This document shows positions 60,401 through 63,583 of a DNA stretch of 64,000 nucleotides, piece by piece. The stretch comes from Euglena gracilis (taxonomy: Eukaryota), in the NCBI GenBank assembly GCA_039621445.1, contig CP154954.1, forward strand, positions 21,066,642 through 21,130,641. Reading direction: 5' to 3'. Under the pieces are notes generated by a model, which had not been told where the DNA came from, ran no database searches, and saw only the letters and a list, made by a program, of their open reading frames with translations. Position 1 is the stretch's first letter. Every line of letters starts with the position of its first letter. The translations under genes and the position numbers were made by a program.

Positions 60401-63400
60401 GTGTGTTAATATATGTGTGCATCTCACATTTACAGATGTTGTGTTTATTACATGGTGTGAACCCTGGAGGAAAATGGCTTCAGCCAAATCAACTCCCCAA
60501 AAAGCCAGGTGTGAGAGTGGGCCATCCTCTTAAGTGGGGAAAGAGTTGGGCTAACCCATCCCCCCCCCCCAAAAAGGGGAAAAAATGCTTCTTTCCCGTT
60601 CATCAACCTCATGTAAAACACATACAATGCCACGTTTTTTTTTGAAAAAAATTGTATAACATAAAATATATCATGTGGCATTCAGGCTGGTTTTCACCCA
60701 AAAAAAAGTTGTTCCACAGTTGTTGGGATACCAGCTCCCCATTATCCAATCCCCTGGGGGGGGGGGGGGTAACTTTTCATGGGCATTGATAGGCATGAAA
60801 GAGAGTTTTGGCAATCCGTTACCTGGTTACCTGAGTAATTCTCTGGGGGGCCCATATGTGACATCGAGAGGGTCAGGTGCATTGAATAAGGTTGGGATTA
60901 ATTTGGGTGTGCTAAACATTTTAATTACTCTGCTTTTTTTTGCGTCATGGAAGACCTCATTTCAAGTTTGATGGTCCCCAAGAGCCACGTTTTCTTCATC
61001 GGACAAGGTCACGGTGGAATGGAATGAGAAGACGCACGGGAGGAACAAATGACAAGAAAACCTGCTTTGCGAGCGCCGGGGTCGCGAACTGCACGTGCAT
61101 GAAGCCCGCGAAGCTTCCGTCCTTCCGGTTGCCCCAGCGCACTGACTCAACGGCGTGGGGACTGTGGCAGTGCACCCACCGGGATTGGCTTTGTTGGCTC
61201 CCTGGACCACGGGTTGCCCCCGCCCAAAGGGTCACCATTCCGGATACTTGCAGATTTTGCATTTTGCAGATCATCCACAGCGACAGCGATACACAACACA
61301 GCTGCGGACTAACTCACAACTGCATGACAATTGGTTGCAAATGCACCCACACCCACACATCAATAACTAACAACAGCAGCAGCAGCAGCAGCAGCAGCAG
61401 CAGCAGCAGCAACACAACCACAACAACAACAAAAATAACAACAACAACAACAACAACAACAACCATACCGACAATAACAACAATAGAATAACTACAGTGC
61501 CCAAGAAACTGGGAAAGTCCAAAAAAAAACTGCAAAGAGTCGGCAGGGAGTGGATGAGTGAGGGTGTGTGTTTGTGTGTGTGAGTGAGTGAGTGTGAGTG
61601 TGAGTGTGTGTGTGTGTGTGTGTGTGTGTGTGTTTGCGCGCATGTGTGTGCATGCACGCGTGTGCGTGCGTGCGTGCGTGCGTGCGTGCGTGCGTGCGTG
61701 CGTGCGTGCGTGCGTGCGTGCGTGCGTGCGTGCGTGCGTGCGTGCGTGCGTGCGTGCGTGCGTGCGTGCGTGCGTGCGTGCGTGCGTGCGTGTGCGTGCG
61801 TGCGTGCGTGCGTGCGTGCGTGCGTGCGTGCGTGCGTGCGTGCGTGCGTGCGTGCGTGCGTGCGTGCGTGCGTGCGTGCGTGTGTGTGTGTGTGTGTGTG
61901 TGTGTGTGTGTGTGTGTGTGCGTGTGTGTGCGTGCGTGCGCGCGCGCGTGCGTGCGTGCGTGCGTGCGTGCGTGCGTTCGTGCGTGTGTCCATACACATG
62001 CGTAGCTTGAGATCAAGATACACAAAAAGGCCTGGCGGGGAAATCAACCTATTCCCCAGAGGCACGTTTTTTTGGGCTTCCTGTCCAGTCTGATCTCTCA
62101 TTGGATATGCGTGAGACCCAGAAGAACATCCCTCAGTCGCTCGCGTTTACCCATCCACCCAGTCCGGCCCTCTGCCACGCCACTGGTAGGGAAAACCTAC
62201 CGTCCTCGCCCCCCTCCCCGGGAGGTGCCTGGGCCCAGGGCGGCGTAGTGGGCCTCGAGGTGCTGCCGCGACGTCGCCAGGCAAGGACAGTCATCCCCGG
62301 TTTTTGGTCTCCGGTGGGGTCCAGTGGGATCCGGTGGGACCCGGTGGGATCCGGTGGGATCCGGTGGGATCCGGTGGGGTTCCGGTGGGTTGCCTTGGGG
62401 GGGGGGGCGGGAAAAAAACACATGCAACAAGGTCAGGCTCTTGGTCTCTTTTTTTTGTCCCATATGAGTCACCTTTTGGTTCTGTTTAATGGGCCCAGCC
62501 AGGTGCTCAGGATCTTTTGCCCCGTCGCCACATGGGATCACCACATGATGTGATGTACTCATTGCTCACCCTGGGGTCGTCGGTTTCATCCACCCCAATA
62601 GCCACCAAATATTTGTCATCACGAATCATGTCCTGCAACTTTTTTTGACCAAAAAGAAAGGGTTGTACAAAAAAAGCAACCCATTCTTGTGCATCCCTCT
62701 TTGGGGATGCTGCCGCACCGTGCACACCGCGTGGCACGGCATGACAGCAAGCAGGTACCTTTAATAACTGAATGAGAGAAAACCACCCGCAAAAGCGCCC
62801 ATCGATTATCAAATTGCAATAAAAAGTCATTTTGAGCGAATTTCGTCAATTTTAGGTGTTTTTGGCACAAATCACCTGGTTTTGCCACCAGATCATACCC
62901 AAAATGTCCCAATGTTCACCTAATCTGTGCAAATGGCCACAAAATGGCCAAAAGTGGCCAAAAAGTGGATAAAGGGGCAAAAAGTGGATAAAAGCAGTCA
63001 GAAGTGGCCGAAAATGGACACAAATGTGCAAAAATAGCCAGAAGCAGCCAAAAGTTGGTGTAAATAAAGCAAAAATGCATTCAAACAGCCAAAGGTGGTC
63101 TAAACTGCCAAATGCAGCCCAAAATGGCTAAAAGTGGACAAAAGTGGTCCAGAATGGCCAAAAAAAAATGGCCAAAAGGGCCAAAAGCTGCTGATTTGCA
63201 GTAAACCAGACAAAAAAAGAATGTAAGTCAACTACAGATGGGGTACTGGTGGAAATTTGTGAAAATTGCACATTCGGAAATGATTCTCCTCACGCGGGCC
63301 ATGAATCCAAGAAGAAAAATCTGTGCATGAAAAAAAATCTCCGGTGGGATCCGGTGGGATCCGGTGGGATCCGGTGGGATCCGGTGGGATCCGGTGGGAA

Positions 63401-63583
63401 CCCACTAGTCAAATGGTCAAAAAATCCCCGGTGGGATCCAGTGGGATCCGGTGGGATCCGGTGGGATCCGGTGGGATCCGGTGGCTGTCCTTGCCTGGAC
63501 GTCGCCTCCGGGCAGCCCGCGAAGAACAGCGTCCGCTGCGCCGCGGCGATGTCCCGCGACCGGCGCTGGCTCTCCTTCGCCAT
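48425..63583 (-). CDS. DEAD-box RNA helicase (DDX5/Dbp2-like core) with N-terminal RRM; about 19 exons
   Basis: [18 protein letters not shown] motif [13 protein letters not shown] (57798-57951); PTREL (56424-56491); TPGRL and DEADQM (53752-53891); [33 protein letters not shown]; stop at 48425. Two internal junctions (near 60100 and 52280) not resolved. Confidence 0.92.
49267..49500. mobile_element. hAT-like MITE with perfect 8-bp TSD
   Basis: TIR CAGGCTTCTTTTTAAG / CTTAAAAAGAAGTCTG; TSD GTCCAGAG at 49259-49266 and 49501-49508. Confidence 0.9.
54362..54684. mobile_element. hAT-like MITE related to 49267-49500
   Basis: Ends CAAGGGTTTTTTTTTAAG / CTTAAAAAAAACCCTG; flanks ATATCGAT/ATAACAAT (6/8); internal 12-bp tandem GGGGGACCCTCC. 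Confidence 0.75.
59684..59971. repeat. (ATGA/ATGG/ATGC)n microsatellite
   Basis: Directly visible. Confidence 0.95.
61370..61990. repeat. (CAG)n(CAA)n and (GT)n/(GCGT)n microsatellites
   Basis: Directly visible at 61370-61480 and 61560-61990. Confidence 0.95.
62278..63497. mobile_element. hAT-like MITE that forms intron 1 of the helicase gene
   Basis: 13-bp perfect TIR CAGGCAAGGACAG; perfect 8-bp TSD GACGTCGC (62270-62277 and 63498-63505); subterminal (GGATCCGGTG)n arrays. Confidence 0.92.

Follow-up and report, generated by a model that had tools for sequence, protein, structure and literature searches.

A recent transposon-like insertion in a helicase exon of Euglena gracilis matches the code of euglenid nonconventional introns

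Nonconventional introns of euglenids carry CAG 3 nt past the donor site and CTG 8 nt ahead of the acceptor site (PMC12501133; what is taken here from this paper and from PMC11282704, PMC3935182 and PMC8101967 comes from excerpts of each). The bases of CAG and CTG are required, the 5' spacer is strictly 3 nt, the 3' spacer has an optimum of 5 nt with one additional nucleotide tolerated, and a purine is preferred as the first exon base. Fully synthetic 50-bp introns with these features and 12 complementary bases were spliced in E. gracilis (PMC12501133). Such introns make up 71.8% of all introns in E. agilis (PMC12501133), and after excision euglenid nonconventional introns are found as circular RNAs without a lariat (PMC11282704). 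An origin from MITEs (miniature inverted-repeat transposable elements) was hypothesised in 2013/14, before any euglenid transposon was known (PMC3935182). The origin is still called unclear in a 2025 paper (PMC12501133), and in the literature covered here MITEs have been proposed in general terms only. Here we describe a MITE-like element of 1,220 bp within an RRM-like/DEAD-box helicase gene, in which it interrupts the first coding exon. The locus lies in a 64,000-nucleotide stretch of E. gracilis contig CP154954.1 (assembly GCA_039621445.1, positions 21,066,642 to 21,130,641 of the forward strand), which is called the window below.

With the described euglenid nonconventional introns (PMC12501133), this locus shares the lack of GT-AG ends, the positions of CAG and CTG, the 3-nt and 5-nt spacers, the purine and the paired ends. 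It differs from them in that the element is an intact transposon copy whose ends and duplication are perfect, that its relatives number in the thousands and that an empty allele exists. Like the introners and MITE-derived introns of Micromonas, dinoflagellates and Fritillaria (PMC11282704), the element landed in an exon, and its duplication would give part of the splice signal; those introns are mostly spliceosomal, whereas the pathway of the present element would be the euglenid non-GT-AG one. The third system for comparison is that of the non-autonomous hAT elements, exemplified by maize Ds, with which the element has in common an 8-bp duplication, short inverted ends beginning with CAG, repeats near the ends and the absence of coding capacity. 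The hAT pattern consists of a CAG start, an 8-bp duplication and short subterminal repeats, and the terminal consensus of the superfamily is YARNG; the end of our element is CAGGC instead, and its arrays are direct. Ds is said to have been reported by Giroux et al. in 1994 as acting as a new intron in maize. Its spliceosomal splicing is imprecise, in contrast to the exact cut predicted for the element described here.

Anatomy, abundance and recent insertion of the element

The element occupies positions 62278 to 63497 (no strand assigned). A reading made beforehand from the letters of the window, without database searches (the sequence-only reading), had reported a perfect 13-bp terminal inverted repeat beginning with CAGG, a perfect 8-bp target-site duplication and tandem 10-mer arrays near both ends, and each of these features was confirmed at the position given there. 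The left inverted repeat, CAGGCAAGGACAG (62278-62290, 13 bp), and the right one (63485-63497) are exact reverse complements, and no third copy of the 13-mer is present within the window. Directly outside the ends are two copies of the duplication GACGTCGC, the left at 62270-62277 and the right at 63498-63505, identical at 8/8 positions. The direct repeat is 9 nt long when the adjoining C is counted, and this same C is the first base of the inverted end. Two subterminal arrays of the 10-mer TCCGGTGGGA were found on the plus strand, one at 62310-62389 with 7.9 copies and the other at 63340-63484 with 13.8 copies in two blocks, separated by a break at 63403-63426. The arrays at the two element ends are in the same (+) orientation, that is, direct rather than inverted. 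The Pfam scan of the internal open reading frames (ORFs) of the element gave no match. With its inverted ends and duplication, its lack of coding capacity and its many copies, the element has the properties by which a MITE is defined.

The whole window was scanned for perfect 8-bp repeats directly flanking perfect inverted repeats of at least 8 bp, and the 1,220-bp element was the sole match that was not of low complexity. In 100 random Markov-1 sequences the same scan gave a mean of 0.17 matches, inverted ends reached 9 bp at most, and ends of 13 bp were seen in 0/100. The anatomy of the element is far beyond chance.

Sequence data from four runs, all under the same species label, were aligned to positions 62010-64000: a DNA-type run (X14), an RNA-like run (X15) and two raw RNA runs (X21 and X22). 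At an identity of at least 90%, 6,023 contigs of X14 align to the element (1,367 at 99% or more, 2,243 at 95-99% and 2,413 at 90-95%). The summed word depth on the element in X14 is 4,581-202,482, compared with 43-45 in the flanks; such a sum does not give the copy number. In RNA reads that stem from other family copies, on both strands, the match stops precisely before 62278 (11 reads with varied flanks in X21, 3 reads in X22), and an X15 contig of another copy ends with ...CTGTCCTTGCCTG before continuing into a different flank. These breaks indicate that the limits of the element are the limits of the family and that dispersed copies exist. The family is thus seen at high copy in the X14 contigs and with other flanks in the RNA reads, in line with the related dispersed copies that had been expected. 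An internal degenerate array of TGGCCAAAAG-like 10-mers (62934-63186, plus strand), identified by repeat analysis, shows many length variants among the family contigs. No further copy of the 1,220-bp element was found within the window. A metagenome scan with a 16-base end motif returned 119 loci, all of them chance matches, and blastn of the element against these loci gave one weak 43-bp match. A literature search with strings of the element sequence returned chance primer matches only.

In X14, the site was found without the element. One contig of 769 nt, with a depth of 43.1, reaches from beyond 64000 to 62249; it takes in the untranscribed upstream region and exon 1, crosses the joint and continues for another 21 nt. 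It contains a single copy of GACGTCGC, lacks the element and shows no break at the right-hand divergence point. A second contig, with a depth of 45.2, covers the stretch from 62278 downwards, including exon 2 and intron 2, and both flank contigs show 0 differences from the window. The depth is equal over the intron, the upstream region and the exon, indicating that X14 is DNA; in the RNA-like run X15, the depth of intron 2 was 2.1 versus 149.7 over the exon. The continuity of the upstream contig across the right-hand divergence point means that the empty site is present in X14 at virtually full depth. Being polymorphic within one species label, the insertion is very recent, and the element is mobile. 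The data thus show that a high-copy element with inverted ends recently inserted into a coding exon, where it is flanked by an 8-bp duplication, and that the insertion is polymorphic. A recent exonic insertion had been suggested by the sequence-only reading, and the empty site in X14, with one repeat copy, 0 flank differences and the depth of the flanks, bears this out. The same reading had looked to relatives for an empty site; one was found in DNA of the same species label, which is empty-site evidence of the strongest sort.

The nonconventional-intron code and the transcript junction

The helicase gene is on the minus strand, with exon 1 at 63501-63629 and exon 2 at 62235-62272, the latter defined by protein mapping and RNA data. 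Between them lies the predicted nonconventional intron 1 (62273-63500, minus strand), GTC-CAG...CTG-GCGAC, which consists of the element plus 3 + 5 nt of the duplication. In mRNA sense the region reads GAGGCGAC|GTC-CAG-GCAAGGACAG ... CTGTCCTTGC-CTG-GCGAC|GTCGCGG. Of the junction options that are consistent with the protein, 0/17 have GT/GC-AG ends, in agreement with the earlier observation that no GT-AG pair restores the frame. In the option 62273-63500, CAG stands at +4..6 and CTG at -8..-6, and the 3' exon begins with a purine; the euglenid nonconventional geometry claimed for this intron is therefore present. In the RNA fold, the element ends pair at 13/13 positions and the pairing is extended by the near-palindromic duplication, both in the minimum-energy and in the centroid structure. 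The element and its duplication together are an exact match to the published nonconventional-intron code (PMC12501133).

Each spacer comes from one of the two duplication copies, one of which gives its last 3 bases and the other its first 5, and 3 + 5 = 8. A cut at 62273-63500 takes out the element and one duplication copy, which restores the original message. No link of the spacers to a duplication was found in the excerpts covered here (supplements aside), nor by searches for literature on Euglena introns together with hAT or target-site duplication. Both the concrete, testable example of an intron of MITE origin and the 3 + 5 = 8 reading appear to be new.

The joint 62269->63498, which skips 1,228 nt and can be slid over 9 shared bases, was observed in all three runs of the RNA kind: in 6 reads of X21 (6 starts), in 8 reads of X22 (7 starts) and in one 962-nt contig of X15 (depth 149.7). 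The cut 62273-63500 proposed earlier falls within the slide range of this joint. A public E. gracilis transcript protein of 566 aa, eukprot:EG_transcript_7585 (P0001), matches the predicted joined reading across the element site letter for letter, and the junction of intron 2 as well. The mRNA carries the predicted junction, and the in-frame protein expected from the removal of 62273-63500 is found exactly in P0001.

A non-autonomous cut-and-paste transposon of MITE-like type, of a highly abundant family, has very recently entered the RRM-like/DEAD-box helicase gene at its first coding exon. We propose that in the transcript the two inverted ends of the element would pair, and that the 8-bp duplication would supply both spacers measured by the euglenid machinery, the 3 nt ahead of CAG and the 5 nt that follow CTG. 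A cut at 62273-63500 would take out the element and exactly one duplication copy, and the reading frame from before the insertion would be restored. Because CAG...CTG is identical on both strands, removal would be possible in either orientation. As a whole, a recent MITE-like insertion into a helicase exon that is removed as a nonconventional intron is in our judgement the probable explanation of the locus. Going by the published code, it is likely that the filled allele is transcribed and that the element is removed by the nonconventional pathway.

The host gene, its other introns and its other elements

The RRM-like and DEAD-box helicase gene spans 48425-63629 on the minus strand, with 19 exons and 18 introns. 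P0001, which was found by a protein search with 98% identity to the 3' exon query, aligns at 100% to 19 exons between 63583 and 48428 and is followed by a TGA stop, so that, leaving the element aside, this copy of the gene is intact. Judging by the source name of P0001 and this full match, the window would be DNA of E. gracilis, or of something almost identical to it, and of nuclear type. A protein search with 41 aa of exon 1 gave no match, which the existence of P0001 reveals as a false negative. The ATG is at 63583-63581, and an exon encoding EASLRALRK was located near 49640-49660 by the same mapping. A related euglenid transcript, GGOE01037205.1.p1 (P0002), with 88% identity to the 3' exon query, is collinear with P0001 and has no gap at the element site. 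Pfam detected the DEAD and Helicase_C domains in P0001 and no RRM even at E<=1, although the 70 residues at the N terminus align collinearly with RRM_1 of a related protein, P0014. The earlier RRM assignment is thus supported by collinearity but not by a Pfam match in P0001, and judging from the alignment "RRM-like" seems a fair label for the N terminus. The transcript contig of X15 extends to 63629; GAAA and Illumina adapter follow at 63629-63630, giving ...TTTCG on the mRNA strand. This ending fits the Euglena spliced-leader tail, and a trans-splice acceptor would then lie there. Just downstream of the gene, an ORF with a P-loop and weak AAA-type Pfam matches (47490-47966, minus strand) is probably the next gene. 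Rfam and tRNA scans gave 0 matches.

Among the 18 introns, nine have a GT/GC-AG option (introns 3, 4, 5, 6, 9, 11, 12, 17 and 18) and five have the strict nonconventional code (introns 1, 2, 10, 15 and 16). Introns 14 and 7 have CAG and a 3' spacer of 4 or 6 nt, and two are of other kinds (introns 8 and 13). The same strict code in the four introns other than intron 1 was counted in favour of the proposed explanation. Intron 2 (61163-62234, minus strand) is a standard nonconventional intron, GCC-CAG...CTG-CCACA|G, with (GTGC)n/(GT)n microsatellites. It is supported by loose ends at 62234 that resume at 61161/61162, as seen in one contig of X15 and, with 9 reads each, in X21 and X22. Long (CAG)n, (CAA)n, (GT)n and (GTGC)n microsatellites were noted at 61374-61986 of this intron. 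Intron 8 (55999-56423, minus strand) shows the same 3-nt/5-nt geometry with TGT...ACA instead (AAC-TGT-CCC ... GGG-ACA-TGGGT|G).

Inverted-repeat pairs were also collected over the window for all 64 start triplets, and the identity of their flanks was scored over 8 nt. Flanks identical at 8/8 positions were found for 5 of the 9,810 pairs, three of which belong to a CATG microsatellite and two of which have CAG...CTG ends, namely the 1,220-bp element and an element of 234 bp. The mean flank identity of the CAG-type pairs (n=208) was 2.05/8, no higher than that of other start triplets, suggesting that most such pairs are due to chance and that the 8/8 cases alone are informative. A block of (TGAA/TGCA)n-type microsatellites at 59450-60050, in introns 4-5, is the source of the only other 8/8 flank matches.

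The 234-bp element is a second intact MITE, of another family (49259-49508 with its duplication, no strand; element proper at 49267-49500). Its duplication, GTCCAGAG, is 8/8 and its ends are CAGGCTTCTTTTTAAG / CAGACTTCTTTTTAAG, that is, CAGGC/CAGAC TTCTTTTTAAG; many G/C homopolymers are present. It is nested in the conventional intron 17 and has the full code of 3 nt, CAG...CTG, 5 nt and a purine, and from these features it may be an intron within an intron. A third element, an older relative of the 234-bp one, lies in intron 10 (54354-54692 with flanks, no strand; element proper at 54362-54684). Its ends are CA(A)GGGTTTTTTTT(T)AAG, with one extra base in the left end, and its flanks, ATATCGAT / ATAACAAT, match at 6/8 positions. 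These two further CAG-ended elements with 8-bp duplications (8/8 and 6/8) within the helicase gene were likewise counted in favour of the proposal.

To look for decayed duplications, the 8 nt over the donor site (5 exon + 3 intron) were compared with the 8 nt over the acceptor site, with 588 shifted windows as controls. In six older CAG-type introns, a small sample with an ambiguous register for introns 7 and 14, the donor and acceptor 8-mers match at 20/48 positions versus 11.4 expected (resampling P = 0.0024). This excess fits decayed duplications. The older CAG-type introns have 1-6/8 repeat matches and 7-11/13 end pairs, and intron 1 has 8/8 and 13/13.

Alternative explanations and implications

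Several observations weigh against a recent MITE-like insertion that is removed as an intron. A length of 1,220 bp is at the long end for a MITE, the subterminal TCCGGTGGGA arrays are direct and not inverted, and the fifth end base is C, versus G in the hAT consensus. The filled allele may be rare, with at most about 2/45 depth units unaccounted for in X14. The two X14 contigs break at 62249-62278, which might point to a rare filled allele in that run, but a difference of 45.2 versus 43.1 in depth is no more than noise. Among the reads and contigs listed for X14, X15, X21 and X22, none shows the filled allele transcribed or spliced, and no back-joint of a circular RNA was present among the joints listed. 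The junction sought in RNA was found in 14 reads, one transcript contig and P0001, but the same joint is present in X14 DNA. Because the empty allele gives this joint as DNA, the joined mRNA and P0001 are no proof that the filled allele is spliced, and both could derive from empty alleles. Pre-mRNA is invisible at the sequencing depth of these runs; the depth over intron 2 is 0 in X21 and X22, and the RNA runs therefore cannot reveal whether the filled allele is present.

The first alternative concerns the classification only, and holds that the element was moved by a non-hAT superfamily which also makes 8-bp duplications (P, Merlin or other). The hAT assignment of the sequence-only reading was upheld for the 8-bp duplication and the CAG start, but not for the fifth end base, and no transposase was found among the window ORFs tested. 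The end CAGGC fits 4/5 positions of YARNG, and that of the third element, CAGGG, fits 5/5. Both the fifth base and the missing hAT transposase speak for another superfamily, while the combination of CAG start, 8-bp duplication and subterminal repeats is the hAT pattern and speaks against it. The ORFs tested were the 10 longest or retroelement-like among 140 of at least 130 aa, and they gave only reverse-transcriptase and integrase domains. Two Merlin families with 8-bp duplications are described in E. gracilis (PMC8101967), which likewise favours this alternative. Merlin resembles the element in being a DNA transposon of the same species with duplications of this length. However, every Merlin family in the excerpts of that paper starts with GG and has ends of at least 24 bp, whereas the element starts with CA and has 13-bp ends, and Merlin identity was rejected for its GG start. 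On balance, a non-hAT superfamily is a possibility to which we give somewhat less than even weight, and the element is best called hAT-like by duplication length and CAG ends only, rather than filed as hAT. As to the retroelements, the ORFs on the minus strand in 9786-16033 have RVT_1, rve and Integrase_H2C2 domains at 9.8-14.5 kb. A second RVT_1 is at 25116-25790 (minus strand), and near-identical repeat copies lie at about 25.3-26.1 kb and 28.6-29.3 kb. An open frame of 1,609 aa at 3847-8673 (minus strand) has no Pfam match.

The second alternative is that the insertion is a disruptive, unspliced allele, the transcript of which is degraded or truncated, and that all normal mRNA comes from empty alleles, whether of the same cells or of others. 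The empty site at about full depth in X14 DNA and the lack of filled-allele evidence among the RNA rows listed are consistent with this. Moreover, the read-through from exon 1 into the element is open for many codons (ORF 63290-63748), and retention would alter the protein; in the published knock-in experiments, unspliced constructs lost their transcripts, presumably through nonsense-mediated decay (PMC12501133). Against it, the element with its duplication has every feature that sufficed for the splicing of synthetic introns, its ends pair strongly in the RNA fold, and its length is within the range of several dozen to several thousand nt given for nonconventional introns in a review (PMC11282704). 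Hence, we regard an unspliced allele as unlikely.

The third alternative, a precise loss of an old nonconventional intron from the X14 lineage, starts from the fact that presence and absence alone give no direction, and that P0002 shows only a collinear coding sequence. It is contradicted by the perfect 13/13 ends and 8/8 duplication, versus the 7-11/13 and 1-6/8 of the older introns, by the 1,367 contigs elsewhere with at least 99% identity, by the adjoining intron 2, which is kept in X14, and by the flanks, which are identical between X14 and the window. Such a loss is very improbable. Finally, a repeat copy misplaced in the assembly, as the extreme repetitiveness of the family and the missing filled junction on the right side in X14 might suggest, is hardly credible, because a misassembly would not yield a perfect 8-bp duplication of the empty-site sequence outside perfect ends.

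Questions about the origin and the removal mechanism of euglenid nonconventional introns go back to the 1990s, and the window provides a concrete test case. It contains a high-copy, polymorphic element, and since the ends and the duplication of this element reproduce the code found by experiment, the idea of a transposon origin becomes directly testable. In a wider form, which we see as evenly poised between right and wrong, nonconventional splicing in euglenids would be the excision at the RNA level of transposons with CAG...CTG ends and 8-bp duplications. The introns would be fossil copies of them, and at least one family would still be making new ones today in E. gracilis. If this is true, the 3-nt and 5-nt spacers are the two parts of an 8-bp duplication, and any such insertion would be removed exactly and in either orientation, provided that the sixth duplicated base is a purine. 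The sum 3 + 5 = 8 offers a simple numerical explanation of the asymmetric spacers. If confirmed, the element would represent intron gain in action by a non-spliceosomal route, and would give a hint at what the euglenid machinery measures.

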